From: a virus
DNA length: 64,000 nt
Virus record (IMG/VR): IMGVR_UViG_3300025132_000021
Coordinates: 32,001 to 96,000 of that record
Strand: one strand, 5' to 3'
The translations under genes were made by a program, and so were the position numbers. A model generated the notes under the pieces. It saw nothing but the letters and a program-made list of their open reading frames with translations, did not search any database and had not been told where the DNA came from. This document shows, piece after piece, positions 2,262 through 60,245 of this stretch. Each line of letters opens with the position of its first letter. Positions within the stretch are counted from its first letter, which is position 1.

Positions 2262-2322
2262 TCTATTCCAATAAGCCTAAGCCTTGCCAATCTTTAAGTA
2301 TCAGTTCTGCATTAGACTATTT

Positions 2323-3000
2323 ATGGTGCTTGAGTTTTATCCCATAGAGTTTGATGATGACTCGGTAGGATTCGTAGCAGTAGAGTCAGAGTTTGAACCT
2401 TGGTTAATTGCAGCCGTAGGTGTTGGTTTTGAAGATATGAGTTATTCTGTTCTTGAAGAAGACGATGATGGCTTAGTAGAATTGATTATTGACGGGGACG
2501 ATTTTGACAACCTTCAAGATTTGTATGCAGAATATCAAACCTATGGTTGGGCAGTTATTGATGACGATGATTATGCAGAATGGGCTGAAGCCTTTTCAGC
2601 CGAACAAATGAGTGATGAAGATTATCTCTTAATGATTATAGAGTTTGATGAGAAAAATCCACAACCTGCGAAACCTTATCATATAAAGTCAAGTCTTTAC
2701 GAAGATGGCACAGTCCCTTCAATGGCATTCTTTTTGGGTGGGAAAACGGTCAATCCAAAAGTAATGCTCAAAGCAATTAGAGAAGGCAGAGTTGCTCGCC
2801 TCAATCGTAATGCCGACACCAAAGGCTACTATCGTGGAATCAATCTTGACCGCTTTTCTGGTAATAAATCTAACCGCCGAAACTTTTCACAAACTCGTCG
2901 TAATCTTAAGAAAGATATGTTCGGTTCAGTATCCCTCGGCAGCATCCTCACAGGTGTTGCAGCCCTCGGAACAATTTTGTATCTGGTTAATAGGAAGTGA
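2323..3000 (+). CDS. Tail-anchored hypothetical protein (acidic N-half, basic C-half); start revised to ATG 2323
   Basis: TTTAAGTA at 2293 is 30 nt upstream; C-terminal LGSILTGVAALGTILYLVNRK. Confidence 0.8.
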   Translation: MVLEFYPIEFDDDSVGFVAVESEFEPWLIAAVGVGFEDMSYSVLEEDDDGLVELIIDGDDFDNLQDLYAEYQTYGWAVIDDDDYAEWAEAFSAEQMSDEDYLLMIIEFDEKNPQPAKPYHIKSSLYEDGTVPSMAFFLGGKTVNPKVMLKAIREGRVARLNRNADTKGYYRGINLDRFSGNKSNRRNFSQTRRNLKKDMFGSVSLGSILTGVAALGTILYLVNRK

Positions 3001-3174: not shown

Positions 3175-3486
3175 ATGGACAAAGATTTAGAATCCTTTAC
3201 TAAGGATTTGATGTTGTTAATCAACGCTTTCATTACCGATACAGGAGAGATGAAAGAAGTCTTAGCCAGACTCACAGAACAAATGGATACTTTAGAAAAA
3301 GATGTTGGCTACATGAACAAAGTGGTTCGTGATGGCAACGGTCGTCCACCACTAATGACTCGGTTAGAAGTTTTAGAAGAAAAGATTAACACCCTCAAAG
3401 AAACCACTAATCGTTGGTGGCAAGTTTGGGTAGCCGCAGTTCCCGGTTTGTTAGCCTTGCTTACAACTGGTGCAGTGGTGATGTGA
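3175..3486 (+). CDS. Coiled-coil protein with C-terminal membrane anchor
   Basis: Heptad-like helix then WWQVWVAAVPGLLALLTTGAVVM; promoter at 3145. Confidence 0.8.
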   Translation: MDKDLESFTKDLMLLINAFITDTGEMKEVLARLTEQMDTLEKDVGYMNKVVRDGNGRPPLMTRLEVLEEKINTLKETTNRWWQVWVAAVPGLLALLTTGAVVM

Positions 3487-21133: not shown

Positions 21134-23230
21134 ATGGTTCGTGTTAGCGACACAGCAGTAGATTACATCTTGGCATATTTCTGGCTACAAGGTGGCAAAG
21201 CAGGCAGGATTCGTAAAATTGGTCCAGATATGGCTGATTACTTGATTTCTAAAGGACACACATTTTCCCCTCGTGCAGAAAAGAAACTACGCACAGTTCC
21301 TTCTGCTTCTTTTTCTACTTCAGTATCTACTCCATGGACCAGCAACGCTGGTTGGATTGCTGCGACTTTCGGAGAATCCGCTTACAACATTGACGCATAC
21401 TATACTCGTAACCTACCCACAGGCCGTAGTATTGAATTAGGCACAGACCCTATGGGAAGCCCCGGTGGTGGAAAGGGTCGTGCTTGGAAAGCACAATCCT
21501 TTAATCAAACTGGTTGGGATGTTATCAACATTGAATCTATTGTAAATACTAATAAACCAGACCCTCGGTGGATTGCACTTTTGAACAATGTAGCCGTTTC
21601 TGGTGGTGCAAGTTTTACTGCTGATTTCCCAGTAACTAATCCTCGCTACGAAATTGGAAGTGGACTCATGCGCTATGCAGGAACACCACCAGCAATTTCT
21701 GGCGCACCGACTCCAACCACAGGTGCAACACCTCCTCCTCCACCAACACCTGCTGTTGAACCAGTAGTAGAACCAGAACCAGTAGTAGAAACAGTTGATG
21801 TAAGTTTTGATGATTTCAAAGACAATCTTTCTCTTGATGATTTGTCTGTCTTTGTTGTCAATGGGGCAAGCACTCCAACTATTAAGCCTTCAGACCGAAA
21901 GATTTCTTCTAAAGCCTTTGTTGCCAACGCAGGAAAGTTTTCAGTAGAGTCTGGACAGATTTCTATTACTATGAGAACACCAGATGCAGCCAAATTATCC
22001 AATGATTTAGAAGTGGCTTGGATTACTGGTGAACAAGACCCGTCAAAACTTGTTGATATGGAAGGAGATATGGTCACTATTACGGACGAAGAAGGTGAAG
22101 AATATGAAGTTCCAGCACCACCAAAGGTAAAGTTTATTGTTGATTGCGATGAAAAGAAAGTTTTCATTAGTGTTAATGGAGAAATGATTCAAGCCATCAA
22201 AGATGAGTCTGAATATGCTTTTGCTAAGTGTGAAATAACCGTAGAAGAACCCGCTAAAGGCGGTAAGATTACTTCATTATTCCTTGATGGAAGCCCTATT
22301 GAGTTCGGTAAAAAGACAGGGGCTATTTATGATTATGGATTCCCTATTCGTGGAGTCATGGGACTTCCTGAAAATTGTTATGCTGATGCTTATGATGCAG
22401 GAGAAGTTACCGCAGGAAAAGACCCAACAACTCAAATGTTCGCAGCCCGTGGAAAGTTTTATGCACTGGGCGGTCGTTTAATTCAATTTGGAACTCCTCA
22501 ATCTTACACTTATGATATGAGCCAAATGGACGAAAAGGTTCTTCAACCATTAGCACTTAACTTTGATACAGAACTGGATTTAGATAAGCAAGGAATCTTC
22601 TTTACCTTGTTATACCAGAACGCACTTACTGATGGCTCAAATCTTTTCCCCGGTTTTGACATCAACTCTACCGTAGATGCTAACATGGAAAATCTTTTAT
22701 TCCCTAATGATGTTCGTAATCTTCGTCCTAAGACAGAAGATAACAAGGTCATGCTACAAAAAGCAGGTGCTATACGCCGAGCAGGAGAAGGTATTGAAAA
22801 GATTGAGATTGATAGCAGCAATCTTCAAAGCACAGGTGAATTAGAAATCGGAGGTAAAACTTACACAACTGAAGTTTATTCTCAAGTTCAAGTAACTTTT
22901 GATGGAGGAGATACTATGTTGATTCCAGATGGAGATGACCGTTTCCGTGCTATTGACAATTCTGACTCCGAAATTATGGGAACAATTAGTGTAGATGAAA
23001 GCACAGAACGCCCACAAATACAGATTGTTTCAGGAGATTTAGATGATATTTATGAATCATTAGAAGCCTCTCGTCGTTCCAACCGTTTGTCCAAGAGATT
23101 TAATCGTGAAAGCAAAGGAGAAATTGTTAGCCAAACAGGTATGGTAAAGCAAGGAGATTCCTACTACATTATTATGGGTGTTGGTTCACAAACAGTAGTT
23201 GTTGAATTAGATATGGAACAAAAGGTGTGA
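21134..23230 (+). CDS. Large hypothetical protein with Pro-rich linker, first gene of the MoxR cluster; start revised to ATG 21134
   Basis: Promoter at 21104; PTPTTGATPPPPPTP linker; overlaps the next gene. Confidence 0.8.
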   Translation: MVRVSDTAVDYILAYFWLQGGKAGRIRKIGPDMADYLISKGHTFSPRAEKKLRTVPSASFSTSVSTPWTSNAGWIAATFGESAYNIDAYYTRNLPTGRSIELGTDPMGSPGGGKGRAWKAQSFNQTGWDVINIESIVNTNKPDPRWIALLNNVAVSGGASFTADFPVTNPRYEIGSGLMRYAGTPPAISGAPTPTTGATPPPPPTPAVEPVVEPEPVVETVDVSFDDFKDNLSLDDLSVFVVNGASTPTIKPSDRKISSKAFVANAGKFSVESGQISITMRTPDAAKLSNDLEVAWITGEQDPSKLVDMEGDMVTITDEEGEEYEVPAPPKVKFIVDCDEKKVFISVNGEMIQAIKDESEYAFAKCEITVEEPAKGGKITSLFLDGSPIEFGKKTGAIYDYGFPIRGVMGLPENCYADAYDAGEVTAGKDPTTQMFAARGKFYALGGRLIQFGTPQSYTYDMSQMDEKVLQPLALNFDTELDLDKQGIFFTLLYQNALTDGSNLFPGFDINSTVDANMENLLFPNDVRNLRPKTEDNKVMLQKAGAIRRAGEGIEKIEIDSSNLQSTGELEIGGKTYTTEVYSQVQVTFDGGDTMLIPDGDDRFRAIDNSDSEIMGTISVDESTERPQIQIVSGDLDDIYESLEASRRSNRLSKRFNRESKGEIVSQTGMVKQGDSYYIIMGVGSQTVVVELDMEQKV

Positions 23231-26200
23231 TTAGAATGGTAGATGAAGTAGAAGATATGGGACTAACTGTTCCAGAAGATGTTGAAGAAGTAATGGAAAC
23301 TTTAATTGAAGAAGTCGTTGAACCCACACCAGTTGAGCCAAAACTTTCAGGTTCAATCAAAGAACAACTCACTGCATTAGTTGGCGAAGATGGTGTTAGC
23401 ACTTTAGAAGAAGTTGCTAAATCTACTTACAAAGATTTAGATGAGTTCGCTAAGATTACAGTTATTGATACTGCTCTTGATTCTTTAGAGATTTTTACTG
23501 GTAAGAATCGTAGTCCTTTGAACATGGTTGCTTTGGATGCTGATGGAAACACTATTGACTTAGATGATGCAGGTATGGAACTTGCTGACAAAGGCTACGA
23601 AGGTTTCTCTTTAGATTCAGTCTTTGAGACCACCGTTTTTGAACCCGGATTTAGCCCAGAAAATATGGGAACTGCTCTCAAAGAAGTATTCCGTGCAAAA
23701 CTTACTTTAGGAGATTGGGAAGCCAAGCAAAAAACTCACACTGAACTACTTGACCCAGTGCGTAAGGCTATGACTCAACTCGGAGAAGTTTTCGGTTTTG
23801 ATAACTATGAACACTTAGAAATGTTCTTTGCAGCATGGTTGATGAAAGATTCTACTTGCCGTTTGTCTGGTATTCCCGGAACTGGTAAGACCACGGTTAT
23901 TGAATCAGCAGCAGTTCTGTTGTGCAATTCTTATGGATTCAACAAACAATCTCGTTTCGTTGCCCCAATCCGTGCTGACCCATATACTATGGAAGAATTA
24001 TTCGGAGAGAATCGTTCCTATGTGGCTCAAGAATACCCATCAGGTATGGAATATAACCTAACTTACTCAAACTCTGCTTATGAAACAGTTCGCAACGATT
24101 GGGACGAATGGCGTTTCACCAGTTGGTCTCGTCCCGGTGGTCGCAACCGTTCAGGTGCTTATCTTTATGATATGTCATTCTTGCACCCATCAGGTAAGCG
24201 TGATGGAGAACCATTCCAGAAAAAAGCCTTGGAAATTGGAAACTTTTACAAGTTGTTGAACAATTGTTATGTCGTTCAGGCTCCAGTTCAAGGATTTACT
24301 GACCCATCAGAAGGAAAGTCAGAAGGTAAAGAACTTTTGAAACAATTAGAGGAAGACCAAATCCAAACCGTAGTAGCACCTATCAAGTTGCTTAACGCTG
24401 ATGGAACTTTGGCTGATTTTGGAACACCATTGGTGTATGATGTTTATGATGTCCGAGGCAACAAGCATCAATTCCCAATGCAAGTCCGTTTCCCAGATGT
24501 AAATATGGCGGCTGAAACTGAAAACACTCAAAATTACAAGTGGATTTTAGAACAAGGAGATGCTACCGAGTTTATTCAAGATGGATACGGTTTGTTCACT
24601 GATGCTGGCCGTTCCGAAGGATACGGATTCCGTCAATATCTTATTGAAAACTTTGTAGACTTGCGAAGCAAAGATGCTCGTATTTCAGGAAAGTGGAAGC
24701 CAATTCTTGAAGAAATGCTTGAAGAAATTGGTGTGGCAAAGATTGACTACGAAAAGCGTGCTGATGAAGTATTGTATGGTATTGAGATTCAACAATCCAC
24801 TGTCACTGATAAAATCCGTGATGCTCAGATTTCAACTTATGAGTTTGAACCAGTGCCTCGTCCAATTGTTACTCAACCTATCAAGTTCTTTAACGAAGCC
24901 AACCGTTCACAGGCTGGTGTAGAAGACGCAGTTCTGGGTCTAATTGCCGAGCGAAAGGTAGAATACCGTGGTAAATCTTTTGATTCTCCAAACTTTGTTG
25001 CTTGGATGGACACTAACCCTCACCAAAAAGGAAACGACCTTGCGTTTATTGACCGTATTGATATGGAACTTTTGTTTAAGTCTATCTCTCTCGGTGAACG
25101 CTACTCACAATTGAGTGGTCGTTTCGGTGGTGGCGGTGGATTAGCCCCACAAGAACAAATTGTTTCTAAGTTAGCAGCAGGTGGCGACATTGGATTCACT
25201 GCTCTAAGATTCGGCAATCTTGCTAATCTGTGGCAATTCGTTCAGAAACAAGTTGGATTCGCACCACCGGGTCAGCAACCCGGGACCAGCACTTACGATG
25301 CTTTGCGTGAAATCTCTTATATTTCAGTTCTCTTCACCCAGCGTTTCCTTCCTCGCAACACCACCCTAAAGTCAGGAAATGAGACATTCAATGTAAGTGC
25401 TAAACAGGATTTCAATGAATCTCCGCTTATGGATTTCTCGGTGACTACTAATACTAACGAAGAAGGAAAGTCCAACATTAAACTTCAATCTGATATTAGA
25501 ACAACTTATTCCCAGCACACACCATCTAACATTGACCGTGTTCTTGGTTTCCGTTTCACTAACTCTTTGGTAAAACTTTCGTCAGCATTGGCCTTCCTTC
25601 GTGGAAAGTCTTATGTTACTCGTCAAGAAATCCTTGATGGGCTACCTTATGTGACTGCTCACCGATTAGGTCGTGCTAAATCCAGTAAAGGAGAAATCCA
25701 AGGTTTGCCAGCAGGTCTTCAGTTCAATAACGAACAAGAGTGGATTCGTGAAGCCATTGTTAATGGTTATCTACTTCAAGAAACCAACATTGGTTTCAGT
25801 CAAGGTGGATTACCACTTATGGACATTTGGGATTTGTATTACCGCCGATGTGTAGATGCACTTAAGAGCGCACCTGCACTCTTTTGGTATGAACAACAAG
25901 TGTTGATTCCATTACATAAAGCATTGATTGAAGCAGGCGCAGATGTGGGCAACAAGTTCACACCAGTTCACTGGCATATTGCTACTATGGTTGTTCAAAA
26001 CGAAAAGTCTGCAACTATGCAAAGTTTGACTAAGCCTTACCGAACCTACGCTCACGGTGATGATTACCAATCTAACTACAACCATTACCTAACTCGTGTT
26101 TTCAGCAATCCTAACCCTTCTAAGACTACGGCTGACCAATCATTATATGATTACTACCAACTTCGTGGTGAAATCTGTTCCGAACCTAACTTGTTCTCGG

Positions 26201-27204
26201 ACGACCGTGAAACTTTGTTAGAACTTTTGGCTTCTACTATGGATACCATTTCAGGCAAAGGCGCACCGGGCGGAAAAGGTTCAGGAGTTGCCAACCCAAC
26301 AGCGATTGTTGCTTCTAAGAAATTATCAGCCAAGACCCAAGCCAACGCACAACGCTATTCCGATACAACTTCATTCCAATGGAGAACCTATCAAGATTCC
26401 ATCGGAACATGGGGTCGTATGCTACAACTTGATGGAACAAGTGGTGTAGGAGGAGGCGCAACTGATGTTTTCACCGCATCCCAAACTTCTACGAGTCAAA
26501 AAGTTGCTGCTTCTTTTGCAGACCAAGCCCTAATGATTACAGGCCGTATGGAAGTCAAAGAACCCTCTAAGCGAGCCAGCGTTGCAGGTTCAGCCAGTTC
26601 CATGCAAAGAGACCAAATGATTACCCAACTCAACAAAGTTGAAATGGCATTTGCATCTTATCTGGGCGAAGGAGTTCGGATTCTAAGCGCAGCCGACGGC
26701 TCAACAGAAACCATGACATTTAATCAGTTAATGTCGGCTTGTCGTGAGTTTGTCACTCAATACCCTGCTCGTAAAGACATTACCACAGGGGCTTTTGAAG
26801 TTAATGGAATAGAAGTAGACCTACAAACAGAAGGTTTAATGGCTTGCTTCCCATTAGCCCACACAGCAGGTGCGCCTATGTCTACTGAATACACAGGTGA
26901 TGATTCTTTGCGTTTGTGGGTTCGTTTGTTTGAATCCAACCTAACTGGCAAAAAGGCAGCCACTCAATCAGGAGGTTCGGCTTTCGTAACTCTTAACTTT
27001 ACTATGGGTATCACTTCTAACTGGGCAACCAAGAAGGGAGATTTCCTTAATGTTGTTCCTTCAACAGATGATGACAAGAAAGCCTACATTATTGAAACTT
27101 ACAATGGTTCAGACCTACAAGACACAGGAAACTTGTCCAAGACTGACCTACTTAATTATCAATTCATGTTTGCAGAGTCTCTCAAAGAAGACACGGCTTA
27201 TTGA
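23227..27204 (+). CDS. Very large MoxR/dynein-related AAA+ ATPase with a long insertion
   Basis: Walker A GIPGTGKT; Walker B IKFFNEANR; TNP...AFIDRID; YVTAHRL lid motif. Confidence 0.85.
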   Translation: MIRMVDEVEDMGLTVPEDVEEVMETLIEEVVEPTPVEPKLSGSIKEQLTALVGEDGVSTLEEVAKSTYKDLDEFAKITVIDTALDSLEIFTGKNRSPLNMVALDADGNTIDLDDAGMELADKGYEGFSLDSVFETTVFEPGFSPENMGTALKEVFRAKLTLGDWEAKQKTHTELLDPVRKAMTQLGEVFGFDNYEHLEMFFAAWLMKDSTCRLSGIPGTGKTTVIESAAVLLCNSYGFNKQSRFVAPIRADPYTMEELFGENRSYVAQEYPSGMEYNLTYSNSAYETVRNDWDEWRFTSWSRPGGRNRSGAYLYDMSFLHPSGKRDGEPFQKKALEIGNFYKLLNNCYVVQAPVQGFTDPSEGKSEGKELLKQLEEDQIQTVVAPIKLLNADGTLADFGTPLVYDVYDVRGNKHQFPMQVRFPDVNMAAETENTQNYKWILEQGDATEFIQDGYGLFTDAGRSEGYGFRQYLIENFVDLRSKDARISGKWKPILEEMLEEIGVAKIDYEKRADEVLYGIEIQQSTVTDKIRDAQISTYEFEPVPRPIVTQPIKFFNEANRSQAGVEDAVLGLIAERKVEYRGKSFDSPNFVAWMDTNPHQKGNDLAFIDRIDMELLFKSISLGERYSQLSGRFGGGGGLAPQEQIVSKLAAGGDIGFTALRFGNLANLWQFVQKQVGFAPPGQQPGTSTYDALREISYISVLFTQRFLPRNTTLKSGNETFNVSAKQDFNESPLMDFSVTTNTNEEGKSNIKLQSDIRTTYSQHTPSNIDRVLGFRFTNSLVKLSSALAFLRGKSYVTRQEILDGLPYVTAHRLGRAKSSKGEIQGLPAGLQFNNEQEWIREAIVNGYLLQETNIGFSQGGLPLMDIWDLYYRRCVDALKSAPALFWYEQQVLIPLHKALIEAGADVGNKFTPVHWHIATMVVQNEKSATMQSLTKPYRTYAHGDDYQSNYNHYLTRVFSNPNPSKTTADQSLYDYYQLRGEICSEPNLFSDDRETLLELLASTMDTISGKGAPGGKGSGVANPTAIVASKKLSAKTQANAQRYSDTTSFQWRTYQDSIGTWGRMLQLDGTSGVGGGATDVFTASQTSTSQKVAASFADQALMITGRMEVKEPSKRASVAGSASSMQRDQMITQLNKVEMAFASYLGEGVRILSAADGSTETMTFNQLMSACREFVTQYPARKDITTGAFEVNGIEVDLQTEGLMACFPLAHTAGAPMSTEYTGDDSLRLWVRLFESNLTGKKAATQSGGSAFVTLNFTMGITSNWATKKGDFLNVVPSTDDDKKAYIIETYNGSDLQDTGNLSKTDLLNYQFMFAESLKEDTAY

Positions 27205-27240
27205 GAAAGTTTAAGTAGTTGAAGCCCATAAGGGATAGTG

Positions 27241-31400: not shown

Positions 31401-31502
31401 ATGAAATGTATAAAGCCGTTAGTCCATAATCCCCAATTTGAAGGAAAACATCATTGTAAGCATTGTGCCAGAGAAGCCACAGAACAGGAGGAATCTCAAT
31501 GA
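31401..31502 (+). CDS. 33-aa Cys/His micro-protein, not in ORF track
   Basis: MKCIKPLVHNPQFEGKHHCKHCAREATEQEESQ*; ATGA overlap with the vWA gene. Confidence 0.6.
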   Translation: MKCIKPLVHNPQFEGKHHCKHCAREATEQEESQ

Positions 31503-32689
31503 GTGATGTTCAAGCAGATTCGTGGGTAGACAACCCTTTTACTTTTGCCAAACAGTTTCCGTTGCCCGATATTAAGCCGTTGCCAGTTTCCCTTCGTAAT
31601 CCACTTAAAGATTGTTTTACGGCTTTGAAAGCAAAGTATATCAAAATGCCACCTGCTAAAATCAATCCTGTTGAACCAGTTAGCACTACTCAATGGACAC
31701 CTGAAATGGGAATGGGAGATACTTTAGCAGACCGATTCGCACCTAACCCTGCTTTTATTGGTTTGCCTCTTAAGCGTAAAGAAGTTCCAACCCAGCGTGG
31801 AACAAAAGGGTGGAACACTCATTACAACATCATGGTAGACCAATCAGGTTCTATGCAAGCACCATCCACCGATTTTGACGGAGTTACTATGGATAGAAGT
31901 ATGGTTTGTCGCTTGGCAACCGCTTGTTTAATCCAACAAGCCAGTTTGAACATAGACAGTTTTACTATTTACACCTATAACGATGTTGGCAAACTTGCAT
32001 GGCCGTTGCCAGATGGAGAACCCTCTTATGATTATCAAGGTGCTTTAGATTATCTTACCGCAGATTCCGTCAATAAGTTTTGGAACGGTTATGAAAAAGA
32101 CCAAGGTTCCGCAGGTTCATCAGCCTATACTCGTGAACATGGTTTGAATTATGCTTTGAATGCTTTAGCAGCCATGGTTCCAGACGGAGAAAACAATGAA
32201 GATTCGGCTTTTGAAGTAATGATTCGTAATTGTAAGAAACATGATATTCCCGGAATGATTACTGTATTTATTACTGATGGTCATAACTTAGCAGGTCCAG
32301 TTAAAAATGGAGAACGCTCAGACGATGCAGACGGAATGACTTTTGACCAGTGGATGCGTCAATTTGGTCATGTGTTTTATATTGTTCTTCAAAGTCAATC
32401 GGACGAAAGTGAAATCAGAAGATACAGAAACATGACTATTGAGGCGTTAATGAAAACTTATGGTTGGTCTCGTGAGTTGGCCTCAAAGTTTGTTTGGGGA
32501 TTCCCCGATAGTAAAATGATTGACCCAGAAACCGAAGAAAGAATTACTGAAGTTCAAGACCAAATGGGTTGGTTGTTTGCAGAAATTGGCAGAATCTTTG
32601 CTGGCACATCAGACGAGTTTGAAGACCTTGCTGAAGAACTTGGCGAAATTGGTCCAGATGGGGATTACAAGAATCCATTAGATGATTAG
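31499..32689 (+). CDS. von Willebrand factor A domain protein; start revised to ATG 31499
   Basis: MIDAS MVDQSGSM and VFITDG; GGAGG RBS. Confidence 0.85.
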   Translation: MSDVQADSWVDNPFTFAKQFPLPDIKPLPVSLRNPLKDCFTALKAKYIKMPPAKINPVEPVSTTQWTPEMGMGDTLADRFAPNPAFIGLPLKRKEVPTQRGTKGWNTHYNIMVDQSGSMQAPSTDFDGVTMDRSMVCRLATACLIQQASLNIDSFTIYTYNDVGKLAWPLPDGEPSYDYQGALDYLTADSVNKFWNGYEKDQGSAGSSAYTREHGLNYALNALAAMVPDGENNEDSAFEVMIRNCKKHDIPGMITVFITDGHNLAGPVKNGERSDDADGMTFDQWMRQFGHVFYIVLQSQSDESEIRRYRNMTIEALMKTYGWSRELASKFVWGFPDSKMIDPETEERITEVQDQMGWLFAEIGRIFAGTSDEFEDLAEELGEIGPDGDYKNPLDD

Positions 32690-32729: not shown

Positions 32730-33914
32730 ATGGAGTCAGGTTCACCAATTACCAAAGCAGACCATGTTTGCCTCGGTCAGAAACTAACTTTTCCAGCGTA
32801 TGGAGAAGATTCTTTAATTTCTAATGTCCTGTTTATCACAGGCAAGCGAGGTTCAGGTAAATCTTGGACAGCAGGTGTAATGATGGAAGAGTTTCATAGA
32901 CTTGGATTACAATTTGTTTGTTTTGATGCTTTGAATGCTCACGGTGGCATTGATAGTCTGCCCAGAGTGGAATCATTGAAACCAGAAATCGGACAGTCTA
33001 TTGATATGAAATCTTTAGTAGACCGTTTGAAGACTACGGATAAAAGTTTAGTAATTGCTTTAGGAGGTTTGCCTCTGGTTAAGCAACAAGAACTTATCGG
33101 AGATTATTGCGAAGCCTTGATTGAGGCACGACTTGGTAAAGGCATACACACAGTTATTGAAGAATGTCAAGACTTTGTTCCTCAAATGGGCAGACCTATT
33201 TCTTTTGACCCAATCGTAAGACTCTGCAAACTTGGTCGTGCTTTAGGATATGGTGCGTCTTTGGTTTCCCAACGACCCGCAGGTGTGAACAAAGAAGCCC
33301 TTTCGCAAGCATCGGTATATTTAGTTCACAATGTCATTAACAACCGAGACTTGAAAACTTTGGACGAACAATTAAGTTTTGGAACAGACAAGCGATTGAT
33401 TAAGAAAATCTTGAATGGTATTGCTTCGGCTCGCAAAGGAGAGTGTGTTGCCTATGCCCCAGAGTTTTTCCGAGACCGAGGTTATCTGGTTATTGACAAA
33501 GTTCGTGGCGACCGTCAAGCCAAACACACAGGAAACAATGTAGATGTGCGAAGCACTTTGGGTGGAGTTAGCCATAGCGAAGATGAAGAAACAGAACCTT
33601 TTGAAGCCGTAACTTCAGCAGCAGAGTTAATGCCCTTTGCTCGTCAAAGTTCCTCAATAACACCTGCACCAACCCTCGCTAACGAAACATCGCCTTCGGC
33701 TCTCCCGCCGCTTTCCCAAGAGTTTAGAGGTATGGCTAAAGAATATGATGTTTGGGAGCCAAGTGTTGATGATTATGCAACCGAGTATGATACTGAACCA
33801 TTAGTAGAAAAGAAAGAATCTAAAAATACCAAGTGGATTCCTGTTGCTGCTGTGGGAGGAGTTAGCCTTACCGCAGGATTGTTAATGGTTGTTTTACAAG
33901 GTTTTAAGCGATAG
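32730..33914 (+). CDS. HerA/FtsK-superfamily ATPase, candidate genome-packaging ATPase, with C-terminal TM anchor
   Basis: GKRGSGKS, TVIEECQ, LGRALG (Arg finger), LVSQRP; tail VAAVGGVSLTAGLLMVVLQGFKR. Confidence 0.85.
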   Translation: MESGSPITKADHVCLGQKLTFPAYGEDSLISNVLFITGKRGSGKSWTAGVMMEEFHRLGLQFVCFDALNAHGGIDSLPRVESLKPEIGQSIDMKSLVDRLKTTDKSLVIALGGLPLVKQQELIGDYCEALIEARLGKGIHTVIEECQDFVPQMGRPISFDPIVRLCKLGRALGYGASLVSQRPAGVNKEALSQASVYLVHNVINNRDLKTLDEQLSFGTDKRLIKKILNGIASARKGECVAYAPEFFRDRGYLVIDKVRGDRQAKHTGNNVDVRSTLGGVSHSEDEETEPFEAVTSAAELMPFARQSSSITPAPTLANETSPSALPPLSQEFRGMAKEYDVWEPSVDDYATEYDTEPLVEKKESKNTKWIPVAAVGGVSLTAGLLMVVLQGFKR

Positions 33915-34821: not shown

Positions 34822-35229
34822 ATGACAATGGATAATGGATTTAACGAACCCCTAATTGAAGACCCTAACTCTACGGTCGCAGACTATCCTTGGGATGGAG
34901 ACCACGGGGCAACTCGTTCATACCACACCAGTTCAATGGCTGTTATGACAAACCCAATGCCCTCTATGGTCGCACCAGCAAAGGACGCTGTTAGCGAAGA
35001 GTTTGAAGGATTAAAAGAAGAAGTTTCAGAGTCATCACCAGAAGGTGCTGACATGGGACAGACTGGCGACGCTGGTGGCGACGCAGACGGACAAAACTTT
35101 GGACAAGACCAAGGTTCACAAGATACAAAGGCTGCTGAAGGCATCAATGTGCCTATTGTTGGCTCTGTTTCTTTGATGACTATTGGTATTCTTGGCGTAG
35201 TTGGCTTCTTACTTTACAGGAGAAAGTAG
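34822..35229 (+). CDS. Tail-anchored acidic protein
   Basis: C-terminal VSLMTIGILGVVGFLLYRRK. Confidence 0.8.
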   Translation: MTMDNGFNEPLIEDPNSTVADYPWDGDHGATRSYHTSSMAVMTNPMPSMVAPAKDAVSEEFEGLKEEVSESSPEGADMGQTGDAGGDADGQNFGQDQGSQDTKAAEGINVPIVGSVSLMTIGILGVVGFLLYRRK

Positions 35230-36154: not shown

Positions 36155-36373
36155 ATGGATACAAAAGTAATAATTGTAGGAACAAGTTTGTTGGTAGTCG
36201 GTGCTTTCGCAGCATTGGGTGGAACTTTAGAAGCGTTCACTGTGCCTCTCCCAATCGTCGGCATGAATGCCCTTCAAGTTGGAGGCGTTGTCGTTGCATT
36301 GGTAGGTGTAGGAACTCTTGTAGGTTTTGACCCACTTCGCTTGAAGCAAGCCGCAGCCTCAACAGCATTCTAA
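36155..36373 (+). CDS. Small 2-TM membrane protein
   Basis: Two hydrophobic helices. Confidence 0.75.
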   Translation: MDTKVIIVGTSLLVVGAFAALGGTLEAFTVPLPIVGMNALQVGGVVVALVGVGTLVGFDPLRLKQAAASTAF

Positions 36374-36404
36374 GTGCCGCCTACGCTTAGGCGGTGAGAT
36401 AGAA

Positions 36405-36755
36405 ATGGATTCCAAAACTTTAGCAGAAACACAACGCATTTGTGATGCAGGGCTTGGGGCATATTTGTCTCAAAAGCACTCAGACTTTAGGTTGAAAAAC
36501 TTTAGTCGTGGAATTGTTGCTGGTTCAGTTTTCTCTGTTATTACCTATGGACTTATGAGTTTTGTCTTTGATATGAAAACACAAGCCATGTCTTATGCTT
36601 TAATTCCATTTGGTGCAGGTCTTCTTGGTGGTTCTTACCGAGGATTGACTCAAGCCGAGTCTGAAGATACTTTACATACCACTGATTTTGATGAAGTTTG
36701 TGCCAGTTTAGAATCTGATGAAGATGAAGATGAAGCAGAAGAAGATTCTGAATGA
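36405..36755 (+). CDS. 2-TM membrane protein with acidic tail
   Basis: Two hydrophobic segments; GGTGA RBS. Confidence 0.75.
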   Translation: MDSKTLAETQRICDAGLGAYLSQKHSDFRLKNFSRGIVAGSVFSVITYGLMSFVFDMKTQAMSYALIPFGAGLLGGSYRGLTQAESEDTLHTTDFDEVCASLESDEDEDEAEEDSE

Positions 36756-36794
36756 GCAGTAATCTTTAAGTAGTCGTTCCATTTCATTTTAATT

Positions 36795-37082
36795 ATGGCA
36801 ACAGATATGTTCTCCGTTATTGTCCCTATGGTCGTTGGTGTTGGTCTTACTGCGGTGGTTGTTAAACTACTAATGAAGAAAACCGAAAAGAAATCAGAAC
36901 AGCAATCTGCTTTGATTACATCACCTACTGAAAATGAGATGCTCATGCGTAGTTTGCTTATGCGACCTACCGTTAATGCAGAACTTAATGCTAAGTATGG
37001 CTCTGCACCAAGTCCAGTTTCAGTTAGCACCATGACTGACCTGATTGTGGGAACTCCTTTACCCAGAGCCATCTATTCTTGA
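36795..37082 (+). CDS. N-anchored small membrane protein
   Basis: Promoter at 36765; N-terminal TM followed by Lys residues. Confidence 0.75.
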   Translation: MATDMFSVIVPMVVGVGLTAVVVKLLMKKTEKKSEQQSALITSPTENEMLMRSLLMRPTVNAELNAKYGSAPSPVSVSTMTDLIVGTPLPRAIYS

Positions 37083-37091
37083 GGTTTTATT

Positions 37092-37652
37092 ATGAGAACT
37101 ACCTACCTTAATAGTCAAAAATACGCCTTAATTGGCACACTTGCTGCTATTTGTGGTGGTGTTTTGATGGTAGATTATTTACAAAAACAAAAAGTTAATG
37201 AATCAGAAGATGAAAAAGATTCTGATTGTGGTTGCTCTCATAAGAAAAATGCAGAAGCCCGAATTACTCGTGGACAAGAGGTTTATCAGTCTGAAATGAA
37301 CCAAGATGTTTCTGGTTCTGCTGCTGATTTGAACAGACTTAATCCAGTAGAAGTTGGCGGTGCAGAAGATGTCTACGGTGCTGAAAGTTTTGACACACAA
37401 TATGTTAATATGAATCCAATGGATTATCAGACTCCAACGGCTTTTAGCAACTATTCAGGTTATGCTTCCCAACCTTTTTGGGACCAAGCCAATGATTACT
37501 TGCCAGAATATCGCTTTGCTATGCCATGGTCCAGCAGTTATCTACCAGTAGATGCTTACCGACCTCAAGATTACCAAGGCTACCCAGCAGGCCCACTTCC
37601 TTATGATATGAGAACTCGTAGTATGAATTATACTACTTATCAACGCTCTTGA
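37092..37652 (+). CDS. N-anchored protein with xAE-delimited segments
   Basis: TM; KNAE, YQSE, GGAE, YGAE. Confidence 0.75.
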   Translation: MRTTYLNSQKYALIGTLAAICGGVLMVDYLQKQKVNESEDEKDSDCGCSHKKNAEARITRGQEVYQSEMNQDVSGSAADLNRLNPVEVGGAEDVYGAESFDTQYVNMNPMDYQTPTAFSNYSGYASQPFWDQANDYLPEYRFAMPWSSSYLPVDAYRPQDYQGYPAGPLPYDMRTRSMNYTTYQRS

Positions 37653-49468: not shown

Positions 49469-50161
49469 ATGAGTATGAGAAGCCAAGTATATGAATGGTC
49501 AAACCTCGCACCATCTGGACAAGAGTTCACTCTACGAAGAACAACTGCTGACTTGCCAAAGGCATTGACAGCAAATCGTGAGTATGACTTGTTTATTGGA
49601 GGCGTTGGATTGAACATTACCAAGCCAGCAGAAACGACCGCAACACAGTTTATTGTGATTGAAGATATTGCGTGCAGCCCAACCCTAAACGGTGCTGTCC
49701 AAATCCGAATCAACACAACTGACTACTTCCAGAACCCTGATGTTACCGATATGGTCGGTATCCCGGGACTGGCAAGCCCTTACCCTCGTGGCGCACCAGC
49801 AACAGTCAATTTGGCTGCTGCAACTGTCGGCGCAGGAATCGTAGATTCAGACAACATCCTAAAGTCTTTTGACCTTTACCCAGATGTTTATGTCCTACCG
49901 GGTCAGACTTTCCAGATTCTTTACACACCTCTTGAATCCAGTCTTGTTGGTGGCGCAGGTTCAACTGCGGTAGTCTCTGCATTCATCAAATACACACTAT
50001 ATGATGGACCAGACGCTCTTATTGCTAACAAACTTTTGGAACTTGGTGTCACCATCAACCCAAACAATGTTGATTGGTATAAGCGAAGTCTAATTGAACA
50101 ACAACAACGCTCTGCTGCTGCTTCTGCGGCTGCTATGGCTGCAACCAACGGAGGTGTCTGA
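49469..50161 (+). CDS. Putative major capsid protein 1 (single-jelly-roll type); start revised to ATG 49469
   Basis: About 230 aa, beta-strand pattern, tandem paralog, GGAGA RBS; fold is inferred. Confidence 0.6.
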   Translation: MSMRSQVYEWSNLAPSGQEFTLRRTTADLPKALTANREYDLFIGGVGLNITKPAETTATQFIVIEDIACSPTLNGAVQIRINTTDYFQNPDVTDMVGIPGLASPYPRGAPATVNLAAATVGAGIVDSDNILKSFDLYPDVYVLPGQTFQILYTPLESSLVGGAGSTAVVSAFIKYTLYDGPDALIANKLLELGVTINPNNVDWYKRSLIEQQQRSAAASAAAMAATNGGV

Positions 50162-50162
50162 A

Positions 50163-50849
50163 ATGAGTATGCGAAGTCAAGTATATGAATGGGACGCTGG
50201 CCGTGGAACTAACCAAGTTCAAGCAGCCGAAGCAGGACAAAGAATCAGTATTTTTATCGGCGGATTCGGTAACAACATTACCAAGCCTGCTGAAACCACT
50301 GCAACCGAGTTCGTTGTTATTGAAGATATTGCTGTAACCCCTACACTATCTATTGGTGTAGATGCAACAGCAGGTGCGGCTGTCACAGGTCTTGCTGATG
50401 GTTCAGTTCGTGGTCTACTTTACAACAGCGTTCAGGGTGTCGCAGGTCCTCGTGCCTACACTCAAGTTCGTATCAACACCACTGATTACTTCTTGAACCC
50501 TGACAATGTGCCAAACGACGGTATTCCGGGAACTGCTTCCCCATACCCACGAAGTATCAACTTCCAGCCTTCGTTCAACCTATACCCTGATGTATATGTT
50601 CTACCGGGTCAAGTTTGGGATGTTATCGTAACCTTCTACAACGCACTTGGTCTTGGAGATGCTGCTACTGGCGCACCTCTGGCTGGCACAACCAATGTTG
50701 TCGCTACTAACCAATTGCAGTGTTTCGTGAAATACACTCTGTATGACGGACCTGATGCACTCATCGCTAACAAGTTGTTGGAGATGGGTATTTCCATCAA
50801 CCCCGGAAATGTAGACTGGTATAAGCGAAGCCTTCTTGCTTCACAGTAA
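50163..50849 (+). CDS. Putative major capsid protein 2, paralog of the previous gene; start revised to ATG 50163
   Basis: Shares MSMRSQVYEW, NITKPAETTAT, RINTTDYF, LYPDVYVLPGQ, KYTLYDGPDALIANKLLE, NVDWYKRSL; GGAGGTG RBS. Confidence 0.6.
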   Translation: MSMRSQVYEWDAGRGTNQVQAAEAGQRISIFIGGFGNNITKPAETTATEFVVIEDIAVTPTLSIGVDATAGAAVTGLADGSVRGLLYNSVQGVAGPRAYTQVRINTTDYFLNPDNVPNDGIPGTASPYPRSINFQPSFNLYPDVYVLPGQVWDVIVTFYNALGLGDAATGAPLAGTTNVVATNQLQCFVKYTLYDGPDALIANKLLEMGISINPGNVDWYKRSLLASQ

Positions 50850-58733: not shown

Positions 58734-60245
58734 ATGACTGACTTTGAGGCCATGTCCGTTTATGATGCGGGCGAAGACGACATTCTGAACACATTGAGTA
58801 AGTTCAGTAGAGATTATCCTTCCATGAATTACTCAAAAGGTAGTATGGAATACTTGACTTACACCAGTGGTGCATCCAACAAGTTCCACAATTTCTTCCT
58901 TGCTCAAGACGGTTCAGGAAACTATTTCGCTTTCAATGGCTATGCTCGTATTGGGTATGGTCCAACTATCCATCGTATTGCAGGACCTACTTCTGAAGAA
59001 ATGGCTCGTGGTGCTATGCGTAAAAAGATGCGTCAAAAGGAACGCAAGGGCTATGTGAACCGCACTCGTGATTTCAAAAGTTCTATGCGTGCTGAATATG
59101 TAGTCACTGAATCTGGACTTCCAGTTATTCCTGATTCCTATGGCACAAACTCCGCTTTGGACTCTGGACAAGGAGTTCCAGTTTGGTATGGCTCTGCTGA
59201 AGGTGATGACAAGGCTAATTCCGCCCGTAAGTTAGTTGAAATGCTCGGTAATGGAAAGATTGAAGTTAATTCAATTGATAATTTCGTCCAAAACTTTACT
59301 CGTGATACTGATTTCCATGAACTTAGTGAAGATGAATTAGATATTATTTTCCGTGATGGTTCAATGGCAACTATGATTGCTGATAAAACAGCAGATGGTT
59401 ATGAAATCAGCACAGTAGTTGTGGCTTATGACTCCGAACACCACAAGGGACAAGGATACAACGATGAGATGGACGAATCTCTCGGTATGAGACACCGAGG
59501 CTCACACAGCCAAAGTTTCAAAGACCGCCGAGATGAAGCCTCGGCTATGGATAAGCGACACTCCAAAATGGGTCGTAAATATGATGATGTGATGGCTATG
59601 GACAGTGAACACCACAAAGGACAAGGATATAATGATGAAATGGATGAATCTCTCGGAATGCGCCATCGTGGTTCGCACTCCCAAAGTTTCAAAGACCGAA
59701 GAGATGAAGCATCTGCTATGGATAAGAAATATGGCATGATGCGTAAGTATGACGATGTAGCCGCTATGGATGCTGAAGACTATGTAGTTCTTGAATCTGG
59801 ATTACCAGTTATTCCTGATTCTTACGGAACAAACTCTGCTCTTGACTCTGGACAAGGTGTGCCAGTTTGGTATGGTTCTGCTGAAGGAGATTATGATTAC
59901 CAAAGCACTATGGGCGACATTGACTCTGCACCATTTACAGAAGGCACAGTCAATCCAATTACTTTTACTCGTTTGGGTGCTTATGATGTCCCAGTGATTG
60001 ACAATTCTGAAGGCCAAGATTCCGCTATTGGAGGTCGTGGTGTCCCAGAATGGTATGGAAGTGCAGAAGGAGATTACGAAACTTTTATGGACGACTTTGA
60101 CCGCACTGAATACGAATACAAAGATGTTGAACTTGTTAAGCCTTTCAAGACTGGATTTATGGGTGCATTAGGAGTTATCATGGCTCCAGTAGCCGTAACT
60201 TTTGGTGCAGCACTTTTGGGAATGTTTTTGAACCGTGGTGAATAA
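58734..60245 (+). CDS. Tail-anchored cassette polyprotein with a WGR-like domain and internal repeats
   Basis: SNKFH...YARIG...KERKGY; three WYGSAE cassettes; two HHKGQ repeats; hydrophobic tail. Confidence 0.85.
   Translation: MTDFEAMSVYDAGEDDILNTLSKFSRDYPSMNYSKGSMEYLTYTSGASNKFHNFFLAQDGSGNYFAFNGYARIGYGPTIHRIAGPTSEEMARGAMRKKMRQKERKGYVNRTRDFKSSMRAEYVVTESGLPVIPDSYGTNSALDSGQGVPVWYGSAEGDDKANSARKLVEMLGNGKIEVNSIDNFVQNFTRDTDFHELSEDELDIIFRDGSMATMIADKTADGYEISTVVVAYDSEHHKGQGYNDEMDESLGMRHRGSHSQSFKDRRDEASAMDKRHSKMGRKYDDVMAMDSEHHKGQGYNDEMDESLGMRHRGSHSQSFKDRRDEASAMDKKYGMMRKYDDVAAMDAEDYVVLESGLPVIPDSYGTNSALDSGQGVPVWYGSAEGDYDYQSTMGDIDSAPFTEGTVNPITFTRLGAYDVPVIDNSEGQDSAIGGRGVPEWYGSAEGDYETFMDDFDRTEYEYKDVELVKPFKTGFMGALGVIMAPVAVTFGAALLGMFLNRGE
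59439..59777 (+). repeat. Two tandem coding repeats (57 and 56 aa) bounded by YDSE, MDSE, MDAE
   Basis: HHKGQGYNDEMDESLGMRHRGSHSQSFKDRRDEASAMDK occurs twice. Confidence 0.92.

Follow-up and report, generated by a model that had tools for sequence, protein, structure and literature searches.

The ATPase gene and its core

The window, by which we mean the whole stretch of 64,000 nucleotides that was analyzed, is a part of a 160-kb virus record. A candidate packaging ATPase gene was found in it, and the following features were assigned to the gene and to the conserved core of its product.

32730-33914, plus strand: open reading frame of the packaging ATPase candidate, 394 aa, in three parts (core, linker, and C-terminal helix)
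32730..33539, plus strand: FtsK/HerA-type P-loop ATPase core, candidate genome-packaging motor (aa 1-270)
32841..32864, plus strand: Walker A (P-loop) motif G-K-R-G-S-G-K-S (aa 38-45), with 8 of 8 residues invariant in alignment A1 and aligned with the HerA P-loop
33147..33173, plus strand: Walker B region (aa 140-148), with invariant E144, E145, C146, Q147, and D148, aligned with the HerA Walker B strand
33267..33278, plus strand: S-Q-R-P motif (aa 180-183), the HerA/FtsK signature after the sensor strand, invariant in A1

The Walker A, Walker B, and S-Q-R-P/arginine-finger regions were intact and invariant across 44 homologues, whose core alignment contained ~120 invariant columns. The S-Q-R-P motif was also aligned with the same motif in the HerA chains 8yho and 9x1l. 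In family searches, the core matched PHROG phrog_2666, a "terminase large subunit" (E 5.1e-13), while Pfam DUF87 (HerA central domain) scored 20.2 bits, which is below the gathering score of 23.2. PF01935 has been assigned to several database homologues of the ATPase. A PDB sequence search with the core retrieved HerA chains. Foldseek matched the ATPase model to HerA (E about 2e-12) and to the packaging NTPase B204 of STIV2 (E 6.5e-11, TM(target) 0.73-0.75), and the best fold match in BFVD was the ATPase of Haloarcula virus PH1 (E 1.6e-12, TM(target) 0.77). SH1 ORF17 was the sole match in 50,697 phage and archaeal-virus records (25.6% identity, E 6e-3). The SH1 and PH1 ATPases, both of 240 aa, were the nearest known viral relatives. 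Furthermore, the gene was the only DUF87-like place, and the only FtsK/HerA-type gene, found in the 160-kb record, and no other packaging-type PHROG was matched among the window's 62 other ORFs.

We infer from this that the ATPase packages DNA. The same matches could be read as those of a membrane-bound HerA-like enzyme with a non-packaging role, such as defence, repair, or a secretion-like process, in that the best solved sequence and fold matches were cellular HerA helicases, antiphage HerA complexes included, and the DUF87 score was under its threshold. We consider such a role very improbable. The ATPase consists of the minimal motor only (about 265 aa), without the HerA N-terminal barrel and partner domains, and TM(target) reached 0.73-0.77 with viral ATPases versus 0.32-0.46 with most HerA chains (maximum 0.50). 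Additionally, a match to a NurA, Sir2, or DUF4297 partner was not seen among the window's ORFs.

Most of the gene was also recovered in an independent DNA assembly (X2), in which a 1199-nt contig spanned 32841-34039 with 1 mismatch and 0 gaps. Many marine sequencing runs were found to hold the virus. RNA-library contigs X15 and X16, both of one study, and X17 covered the ATPase gene with its linker and anchor included. Because DNA can occur in RNA libraries, these contigs were not counted as evidence of transcription.

Linker and C-terminal anchor

The remainder of the ORF carried the following features.

33540..33833, plus strand: acidic Ser/Pro/Thr-rich linker, predicted to be disordered (aa 271-368, 98 residues)
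33612..33644, plus strand: conserved island in the linker (aa 295-305), with the sole predicted linker helix at 297-303 and L300 in 81% of sequences
33753..33791, plus strand: short pre-anchor motifs W342 (98%) and E352-Y353-D354 (85-91%); the rest of the linker was unalignable
33834..33905, plus strand: predicted C-terminal transmembrane helix (aa 369-392), with conserved G376-G377
33906..33914, plus strand: two basic residues K-R and the stop codon, with nothing further after the anchor (chain end GFKR)

Position 33540 is the start of codon 271, the first residue past the conserved core, and the tail beyond it (aa 271-394) was rich in E, S, V, A, T, L, and P. The first-pass annotation had described about 100 low-complexity residues, including PFEA, and a C-terminal transmembrane segment with FKR behind the ATPase core. 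Both were recovered here, the former as the 98-aa linker with PFEA at aa 290-293 and the latter, by hydropathy and AlphaFold2, as a terminal hydrophobic helix. For the calling of membrane segments, hydropathy and the AlphaFold helix were the only criteria. With a Kyte-Doolittle mean of 2.1, the 19-mer from aa 370 onward was the most hydrophobic of the whole chain, and the AlphaFold2 model, which was built on a 44-sequence alignment, placed a helix at aa 370-393 with pLDDT of 65-81. The pLDDT of this model was roughly 75-94 over most of aa 11-260, with two 10-residue blocks at 66, and was <50 at aa 270-296 and 303-367. No further hydrophobic segment was found by hydropathy besides aa 369-392, and the N-terminus was without signal peptide or anchor (top 10-mer hydropathy of 0.70 in the first 35 aa). 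Pfam gave no match for the tail even at E 10.

The searches gave 395 homologues of the protein and 3705 relatives of its core, and we compared the tail among the 120 listed homologues (52-100% identity). As observed, the hydrophobic segment lay 3-11 residues from the C-terminus in 118 of the 120, and its retention in so many chains indicates that it is more than a chance feature. The two homologues without an anchor were short chains of 286 and 248 aa, and the 286-aa chain (P0072) stops just past the core. The first-pass annotation had laid weight on whether the tail is conserved; the layout was conserved, with a median pairwise identity of only 14% in the linker compared to 73% in the core, and of 36% in the anchor. 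Linker statistics were calculated for 116 of the 120 homologues, after two that missed the anchor pattern and the two short chains had been dropped. Among these, linker length ranged over 83-146 aa (median 95) and linker net charge had a median of -13, the uncharged anchor span had a median of 24 aa (range 19-33), and 2-6 residues with a median net charge of +2 followed the anchor. The flanks thus had median net charges of -3 (preceding the anchor) and +2 (following it), opposite to what the positive-inside rule would usually predict for a protein with its N-terminus inside. The N-terminal domain would be cytosolic, as expected of an ATP- and DNA-dependent motor. Judged from its sequence and model, the ATPase fits the layout of a tail-anchored membrane protein, i.e., one helix within about 30 residues of the C-terminus.

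Phylogeny of the ATPase

Trees of the ATPase core placed the protein in a clade of 23 representatives (FastTree local support 97, IQ-TREE SH-aLRT 89). A membrane segment followed the core in all 23 rows, one of which scored below threshold. This anchored clade was separate from an 80-row clade of longer HerA-like proteins without a membrane segment, which further argues against a non-packaging HerA-like role. Clustering with non-packaging cellular HerA-like proteins, which the first-pass annotation had named as the outcome that would speak against packaging, was therefore not what the trees gave. As far as the sequences tell, the anchored form is shared by a broader clade of uncultured relatives and is therefore not unique to the virus of the window.

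SH1 ORF17 and PRD1 P9 were present only in the second tree, as the coverage filter had removed SH1 ORF17 from the first. SH1 ORF17 grouped with core-only representatives in the IQ-TREE tree, not with the anchored clade; the placement of both proteins is unsure because their branches are very long (2.73, 3.57). IMG/VR single-protein scans with the second-tier anchored relatives P0145 and P0185 gave no confirmed locus. When the same two proteins were searched by tblastn against phage records, only an uncultured Caudoviricetes "hera helicase" and a Blautia phage terminase were matched, at low identity.

Gene neighbourhood and the membrane concerned

The ATPase gene lies in a block that is syntenic across distant relatives, in which it is the best-conserved gene. 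Two features downstream of it were of relevance.

34822..35229, plus strand: tail-anchored protein with an acidic linker, 135 aa, two genes downstream of the ATPase, with a hydrophobic segment at aa 107-133
36155..37652, plus strand: four small membrane-protein genes (72, 116, 95, and 186 aa), called by hydropathy

The 135-aa protein had no N-terminal hydrophobic stretch and no Pfam match at E 10, and its orthologues were found at the same place in L003, L030, and L031. The order of the four small membrane-protein genes was mostly kept in L003, L005, L030, and L031; their products could be pore or conduit partners of the motor. Upstream, the vWA-like neighbour gene (31463-32689) had no PDB sequence match. 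The candidate jelly-roll capsid genes (49469-50849 and 10582-13948) had no PDB sequence match, and their Atlas matches to the PM2 P2 and PRD1 P3 clusters were weak (0.75-0.77).

The first-pass annotation had suggested tethering to the internal membrane, and in that reading the anchor would sit in the internal virion membrane rather than in the host membrane. Alternatively, it may hold the ATPase on the host cytoplasmic membrane, where the enzyme would translocate DNA much as FtsK or a conjugative coupling protein does, either at a site of assembly or replication or during entry or exit of the genome. The layout mirrors the membrane segments, Pro/Gln-rich linker, and motor of FtsK (PMC11703096, in part), and a weak NCBIfam similarity to the DNA-import ATPase CedD was detected (E 1.5e-5, 23.9 bits versus a cut-off of 600). 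Moreover, host and virion membrane are indistinguishable from the present data. We regard a host-membrane translocase as unlikely, given that this is the only FtsK/HerA gene of the record, that it lies in a conserved block with membrane-protein genes, and that its nearest viral relatives are predicted packaging enzymes. The viral membrane of the PRD1 type also derives from a host membrane carrying viral proteins, as described in part of PMC4267777, and the two membrane assignments therefore largely merge.

A virus-encoded Get3/TRC40 homologue

The virus was found to encode a homologue of the tail-anchor chaperone Get3/TRC40.

14473..15618, plus strand: Get3/TRC40/ArsA-family ATPase, candidate tail-anchor chaperone (381 aa)

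The product matched Pfam ArsA_ATPase (E 3.5e-61) and NCBIfam TIGR00345 (202.4 bits, above the cut-off of 135), and its AlphaFold model had a pLDDT of 88.5. The top structural matches were the archaeal Get3/TRC40 structures 3ug7 and 3zq6 (VIA Z 25.9). Among 41 family members, the motifs G-K-G-G-V-G-K, D-P-A-H-S, and D-T-A-P-T-G-H-T were largely invariant, the rest being at least 90% conserved. A loop with conserved hydrophobic residues (aa 167-176) lay between helices 146-166 and 177-198, and hydrophobic periodicity was conserved on the helices equivalent to those lining the Get3 groove. The insert region showed only short gaps compared with M. thermautotrophicus TRC40; the alignment with E. 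coli ArsA ended at aa 154. The CxxC zinc motif, by which fungal and animal Get3 dimerise, was absent from the window's Get3 and present in 1 of the 41 family members; functional plant and some archaeal Get3 proteins without CxxC are described in part of PMC6593721. The viral protein additionally had an extra C-terminal beta-domain of about 65 aa (aa ~315-381), for which Pfam gave no match at E 10; the listed Get3 structure alignments ended at aa ~308-315.

An ATPase of the ArsA arsenite pump was considered and rejected. The viral protein is a single 381-aa domain, compared to the two tandem domains of ArsA in a chain of about 580 aa, and scored 98 bits against the ArsA equivalog TIGR04291, whose cut-off is 650. 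The VIA Z values for ArsA pumps were 19.4-22.2 versus 25-26 for the top Get3 chains.

We next analyzed the distribution of the gene. It was present in 5 of 5 related virus records. The syntenic MAG contig G005 carried it too, at a distance of about 18 kb from the ATPase gene, as in the window. Only 4 Get3 loci of at least 52% identity were found in IMG/VR, and these were the 4 contigs with the anchored ATPase. On contig G006, which is syntenic and 61 kb long, no match to Get3 was detected at E <= 1e-20; the expected position there is near the contig end. A genome family search for a viral Get1/EMC3-type insertase found none, the best being a sub-threshold hit of 13.2 bits.

Tail-anchor-like proteins were counted with a crude hydropathy rule and a small cellular baseline of 441 ORFs. 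The census gave 35 of 634 ORFs in three of these viruses compared to 8 of 441 in cellular contigs (Fisher p 0.0023); relative to membrane proteins, these were 35 of 140 and 8 of 125, respectively (p 4e-5). No excess of C-terminal over N-terminal single anchors was found, with the reversed-sequence control giving 15, 8, and 10 versus 12, 11, and 12, and the census was therefore compared with cellular contigs instead.

The first-pass annotation had named the ATPase as a possible Get3 client. In support of this idea, the virus has a Get3/TRC40 homologue of its own, and that gene shares its distribution with the anchored ATPase. Hence, the viral Get3 may bind the ATPase tail, and it is plausible, from co-occurrence of the two genes alone, that the anchored ATPase is its client. 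Archaeal Get3 homologues are reported to bind tail-anchored proteins (PMC6593721, in part, via its references 32 and 33). The same source states in part that the TRC40-type insert alone does not predict tail-anchor targeting and that the function of prokaryotic Get3 is still an open question.

It is quite possible, if somewhat short of an even chance, that the anchor is real and that its insertion proceeds without the viral Get3, through a YidC/DUF106-type insertase, SRP, or unassisted, with Get3 otherwise used, e.g., as a holdase for hydrophobic virion proteins. Get3 homologues with insert and groove are widespread and possibly general chaperones (PMC6593721, in part), the ATPase anchor is only moderately hydrophobic (2.1), and no viral insertase or receptor was found in the family search for EMC3/Get1; the extra beta-domain outside the listed Get3 structure alignments fits such another use as well. 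However, the viral Get3 lineage and the anchored ATPase were strictly co-distributed in IMG/VR, and tail-anchor-like proteins were enriched 3- to 5-fold. Furthermore, the nearest solved relatives of this chaperone bind tail anchors, and its presence in a virus with about a dozen tail-anchor-like proteins makes a simple fit with the client relationship. The anchored ATPase and the virus's own Get3 thus suggest a virus-run route by which proteins are mounted on the inner membrane.

Proposed role of the anchored ATPase

We think it fairly probable that this is the gene for the genome-packaging ATPase of a marine virus that is large (about 160 kb), tailless, and probably equipped with a membrane, and that the ATPase is synthesized in tail-anchored form. 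Without a signal peptide, and with an anchor that emerges from the ribosome only when translation ends, the protein would have to be inserted post-translationally from the cytoplasmic side, which would leave the motor on the cytoplasmic face. That face would become the capsid-facing side of the internal viral membrane, carrying the motor, with the short basic C-terminus on the luminal side, into which the DNA is packaged. On such a tether, a hexameric motor could occupy a capsid vertex several nanometres above the membrane, and its six helices could remain in, or contribute to, the membrane passage, a job done in PRD1 by P20 and P22. More speculatively, the viral Get3 homologue may capture the ATPase tail and other viral tail anchors and deliver them to the membrane. 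The full version, in which the viral Get3 loads about a dozen tail-anchored proteins including the motor onto the future inner membrane and the six motor helices form or nucleate the DNA conduit, is tentative and, in our judgment, rather doubtful.

Literature searches, which covered open-access papers and bioRxiv, turned up neither a tail-anchored packaging ATPase nor a Get3 encoded by a virus. If the full version is true, the virus would provide the first example of its own Get3 serving a defined set of clients, and also the first of a packaging motor with a covalent link to the viral membrane. The co-inherited Get3 and the enriched viral tail anchors would form a compact, genetically linked chaperone-client system, and could be used for testing what archaeal-type Get3 proteins do. 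An anchored motor on a length-conserved tether would also help to find the portal in tomograms and would serve as a ruler of motor-to-membrane distance.

Comparison with known packaging motors and Get3

The viral Get3 resembles archaeal Get3/TRC40 (M. jannaschii 3UG6/3UG7 and M. thermautotrophicus 3ZQ6) in being single-domain with intact P-loop and switch motifs, and differs from it in being virus-encoded, in its extra C-terminal beta-domain, and in lacking CxxC.

With respect to the motor, the fold match STIV2 B204 (PDB 4KFR/4KFT/4KFU) is a soluble monomer of about 205 residues. To our knowledge, B204 is the only viral packaging ATPase of the FtsK/HerA superfamily with solved structures. Separate small membrane proteins have been proposed for its pore, according to part of PMC4124505. 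The SH1 ORF17/PH1 ATPase of the Halopanivirales, haloarchaeal sphaerolipoviruses, is a minimal FtsK/HerA motor like the window's ATPase, but its 240 aa comprise the core only, without linker or hydrophobic segment. SH1 and PH1 are tailless viruses with an internal membrane (PMC5332951, in part), and the packaging role of SH1 ORF17 is itself only predicted (PMC4124505, in part).

In the sections of PMC11703096 that bear on this, viral FtsK/HerA packaging ATPases are motor-only, with membrane domains only in filamentous phages, whose gp1 (pI) has a membrane segment after an N-terminal ATPase. The gp1 protein has a periplasmic domain past that segment, and is thereby nearer to the second-tier relatives (P0143 and others) than to the tail anchor of the window. 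Bacterial FtsK is a membrane-bound member of the superfamily with a low-complexity linker between membrane part and motor (PMC11703096, in part). Its several N-terminal membrane segments and C-terminal motor are the mirror image of the window's ATPase.

We know of structural detail on the motor-membrane connection and on DNA passage through the lipid layer only for PRD1, where separate tiny membrane proteins serve these ends. The PRD1 vertex consists of P9, the membrane proteins P20 and P22, and the factor P6. The first-pass annotation had given as background that packaging ATPases of PRD1-like and halopanivirus-type viruses are soluble and dock through separate membrane proteins. This agrees with the docking of PRD1 P9 on P20 and P22, as given in part of PMC4267777, and with hydropathy; by the measure used for the ATPase, the top 19-mers of PRD1 P9 (1.12) and SH1 ORF17 (0.98) indicated no membrane segment, and PRD1 P20, P22, and gpi each had one. 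The PRD1 motor is located outside the internal membrane, above a transmembrane conduit (PMC4267777, in part). The PRD1 capsid is of the double jelly-roll type, and the PRD1 genome measures 15 kb, compared to the 160-kb record of the window's virus. In PRD1, ORFi and gene XX (P20) come immediately after gene IX, which encodes the ATPase, and the P20/P22 genes adjoin it or lie nearby, whereas in the window's virus the helix ends the ATPase chain itself and further small membrane-protein genes lie downstream. PRD1 P9 is a separate soluble chain of 227 aa, whereas the window's ATPase has motor and anchor joined by a tether of about 95 aa. The anchored-motor clade would be a natural single-chain version of the PRD1 vertex, with the job of P9, P20, and P22 combined in one chain.

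Architecture of the ATPase and its C-terminal tail

The 160,342-bp IMG/VR virus record holding the window has inverted terminal repeats, and the genes of the window are densely packed, nearly all on the same strand. Among them, the ORF at 32730-33914 (+) encodes a 394-aa protein with the following parts.

aa 1-270 (+): P-loop ATPase core with Walker A, Walker B and an S-Q-R-P motif
aa 38-45 (+): Walker A, invariant
containing E144-E145 (+): Walker B
aa 180-183 (+): S-Q-R-P motif
aa 271-368 (+): linker, rich in Glu, Ser, Pro, Ala, Thr and Asp
aa 369-392 (+): C-terminal hydrophobic stretch, the hydropathy maximum of the protein (19-mer mean 2.1), followed by K-R only

Conservation ended at codon 271 (window position 33540). 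In the AlphaFold2 model, built with 44 homologues, the core was confident, and pLDDT was below 50 at aa 270-296 and 303-367. The short helix 297-303 was the sole one in the linker, and a terminal helix spanned 370-393. Thus, the long low-complexity linker and C-terminal transmembrane segment claimed in the first-pass annotation were confirmed by both hydropathy and the model. The ORF was also recovered with one mismatch in an independent DNA assembly (X2), on a contig over 32841-34039. Contigs of two sequencing runs (X2 and X16) skipped 212-225 bases at 32927-33157, inside the core. The loose ends at this gap resembled diverged homologous sequence, and the gap probably reflects related strains under the 90% likeness limit, not a real deletion.

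Next, the tail was compared among the best 120 of 395 homologues (52-100% identity), which were mostly 381-446 aa long, from marine sources and on contigs of up to 170 kb. The anchor was kept in 118 of these 120 as a terminal hydrophobic segment ending 3-11 residues short of the C-terminus; the two others were chains of 286 and 248 aa. The linker was measurable in 116, after exclusion of two sequences without the anchor pattern and two short chains, and showed a length of 83-146 aa (median 95) and a median net charge of -13. Pairwise identity in this set was 14% in the linker, compared with 73% in the core and 36% in the anchor. Linker positions that were kept included L300, P326, W342 (98%) and E352-Y353-D354 (85-91%), and G376-G377 was conserved within the anchor helix. 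This pattern indicated that frame, length class, charge, short motifs and the terminal helix of the tail are under selection, but the sequence is not. The disordered linker and terminal helix are therefore more than chance, and such conservation would be expected for a flexible tether with docking motifs.

Identity of the ATPase and its gene block

PHROGs assigned the ATPase to 'terminase large subunit' (E 5.1e-13), Pfam gave a DUF87/HerA match at sub-threshold level only, and NCBIfam showed weak similarity to HerA and CedD. The sole match in 50,697 phage and archaeal-virus records was ORF17 of Haloarcula virus SH1 (25.6% identity, E 6e-3). SH1 is a tailless archaeal virus that contains a membrane, and ORF17 is its predicted packaging ATPase. 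The best solved fold matches of the model were HerA helicases and B204, the packaging NTPase of STIV2. The best predicted viral fold match was the ATPase of Haloarcula virus PH1 (240 aa), followed by a corticovirus NTPase and then by A32-like, adenoviral and virophage packaging ATPases. No second DUF87-like place was found in the 160-kb record, and the window's 62 other ORFs gave no match to a packaging PHROG. A check for a capsid gene gave a weak Atlas lead only. We infer a Varidnaviria-type packaging ATPase that is produced tail-anchored, in a virus group carrying a Get3 homologue.

The ATPase was the most conserved member of a gene block whose synteny extended to distant relatives. It was preceded by a protein of 1325 aa that matched an AAA lid (23227-27204), 445-aa and 944-aa proteins and, close upstream, a 408-aa protein (31463-32689). 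Downstream of the ATPase lay a tail-anchored protein of 135 aa, a 285-aa protein rich in Pro, and small membrane proteins. The 408-aa protein had a D-x-S-G-S (MIDAS-like) motif and no match in Pfam or among PDB sequences; it and the 1325-aa protein may form a pair of the MoxR/vWA type. The 136-kb and 61-kb contigs PALK01000017.1 and PBOB01000001.1, binned in MAGs labelled Rickettsiales and Acidiferrobacteraceae, were syntenic with this virus over ~20 kb. This synteny places them in the same virus group, and they are most likely viral contigs misplaced in bacterial bins.

Phylogeny of the ATPase core

A HMMER search with the core gave 3705 matches among 1.84 billion representatives. The 155 tree inputs were reduced to 120 cores by removing 31 fragments or poorly covered rows (including SH1 ORF17) and four intein-bearing chains. 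FastTree placed the ATPase within a 23-row clade with local support of 97. This clade comprised 15 true tail anchors, seven relatives with an internal membrane segment (70-100 aa past the core, then 85-110 aa more), and P0125, a relative whose C-terminal hydrophobic stretch was slightly below the hydropathy threshold. In the 'quick' IQ-TREE analysis of 62 rows, the identical 23 rows formed a single split (SH-aLRT 89), and SH1 ORF17, on a long branch, grouped with core-only representatives. The 80 long relatives (mostly 530-620 aa) without a membrane segment formed a clade apart from the 23 rows; when 20 of these 80 were scanned with Pfam, at least one (P0160) had a MarR-like winged-helix match near its C-terminus. 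The ATPase thus grouped apart from the long HerA-like relatives, and its reading as an anchored packaging ATPase withstood comparison with cellular HerA-like proteins. Other short tail-anchored ATPases (P0185 among them) formed a second, small clade near the long one, indicating that anchoring was gained or lost more than once.

In five more distant relatives (P0143, P0149, P0151, P0175 and P0189), the membrane segment was followed by 85-110 residues ending in a common P-F-x-Y-x-P-F-like motif. Three of these five carried inteins inside the ATPase, two with a LAGLIDADG domain.

A virus-encoded Get3 homologue and other tail-anchor-like proteins

The first-pass annotation had also proposed that the ATPase is possibly a Get3 client, and an unexpected supporting gene was present in the window.

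14473-15618 (+): Get3/TRC40/ArsA-family ATPase, 381 aa, 18 kb upstream of the candidate packaging ATPase gene

The product matched Pfam ArsA_ATPase (E 3.5e-61) and TIGR00345 (202 bits; cut-off 135), and the ArsA-pump equivalog was far under its cut-off. Its model was confident (pLDDT 88.5), and the best structural matches were archaeal Get3/TRC40, followed by Get3 of diatom, yeast and other eukaryotes, some of it in complex with tail-anchor helices. The structure-match score (VIA Z) was 25.9 for 3zq6 versus 19.4-22.2 for ArsA pumps. Hydrophobic periodicity was conserved on the helices corresponding to the client-groove lining in Get3, a loop (167-176) lay at the position of the TRC40 insert, and Met was enriched twofold in aa 70-198 relative to the whole protein. 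A CxxC motif was absent. An additional C-terminal beta-rich domain (aa ~315-381) had no Pfam match and lay beyond the listed alignments to Get3 structures, which reach aa ~308-315.

The gene was present in all five related virus records, and a syntenic MAG contig (G005) carried it with the same spacing to the ATPase as in the window; no match was found in the 61-kb fragment G006. An IMG/VR scan with the Get3 alignment gave 19 loci, four at ≥52% identity and the other 15 at 26-31%, and the four were exactly the contigs bearing the anchored ATPase. Any Get3 homologue was found in only seven phage records, at ≤33% identity. The ATPase tail may therefore be a client of this protein. According to a Get3 review, such homologues may act as general chaperones (PMC6593721). 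No viral insertase was found in the genome. Outside the window, an 88-aa ORF at G000:C1:113191-113292 had a 13.2-bit sub-threshold match to the EMC3/TMCO1 (Get1-like insertase) family, which is probably due to chance.

Other tail-anchored proteins were sought with a crude rule (one hydrophobic 19-mer segment starting after aa 30 and ending ≤15 aa from the C-terminus). This rule retrieved 12/206, 11/231 and 12/197 ORFs in three viruses, compared with 8/441 in cellular contigs (Fisher p 0.0023). When only membrane proteins were counted, the proportions were 35/140 viral versus 8/125 cellular (p 4e-5), although this enrichment holds against cells and not against other anchor types, because a reversed-sequence control showed N-terminal single anchors at a frequency similar to that of tail anchors in these viruses. 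In the window's virus (G000), 8 of the 12 also had no N-terminal hydrophobic stretch, and several of the proteins had orthologues in the other genomes, including the related viruses G001 and G003. Examples are the following.

2284-3000, 3175-3486, 34822-35229 and 58734-60245 (in the window): tail-anchor-like proteins
21747-23291, 26216-27205 and 154369-155028 (G000:C1): tail-anchor-like proteins

Many of the ~12 proteins per genome end in a Gly-rich helix and one or two basic residues, and some of the helices are preceded by a Thr-rich or acidic stalk. One, of 503 aa, bears a WGR domain.

Proposed topology and comparison with known packaging systems

At most 2-6 residues followed the anchor helix and a signal peptide was absent, so the anchor can be inserted only after translation ends. 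The motor would need ATP and DNA and would thus stay on the cytoplasmic side, which in a model of PRD1-type assembly ends up as the inner-membrane side that faces the capsid (PMC4267777). The membrane in which the tail sits would be this virion inner membrane, and a disordered tether of ~95 residues could bridge the distance from membrane to shell vertex. Contrary to the usual positive-inside rule, the anchor flanks had median charges of +2 after the helix (basic) and -3 over the 15 residues before it (acidic). Speculatively, a basic C-terminus facing a DNA-filled lumen would fit these charges.

Among the top 12-25 open-access papers and bioRxiv preprints listed per search, none described a packaging ATPase with a tail anchor or C-terminal anchor, or a virus-encoded Get3. 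The sole mention of 'Get3' in a giant-virus paper was a reference-list item.

The background assumed in the first-pass annotation, that packaging ATPases of PRD1-like and halopanivirus-type viruses are soluble and dock through separate membrane proteins, held. PRD1 mounts P9 on two such proteins, P20 and P22 (PMC4267777). By best-19-mer hydropathy, P9 of PRD1 (1.12) and SH1 ORF17 (0.98) had no membrane segment, compared with 2.3-2.5 for gpi, P20 and P22. Gene IX (P9) of PRD1 is directly followed by ORFi and gene XX (P20). The ATPase would functionally resemble P9 and a P20-type helix combined into a single chain. In a 2025 analysis, viral FtsK/HerA packaging ATPases are motor-only, membrane domains occur only in filamentous-phage gp1, and in FtsK a membrane domain is followed by a Pro/Gln linker and then the motor (PMC11703096). 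Given this order, the ATPase is the mirror image of FtsK, with the motor first, then the linker, and the membrane helix last.
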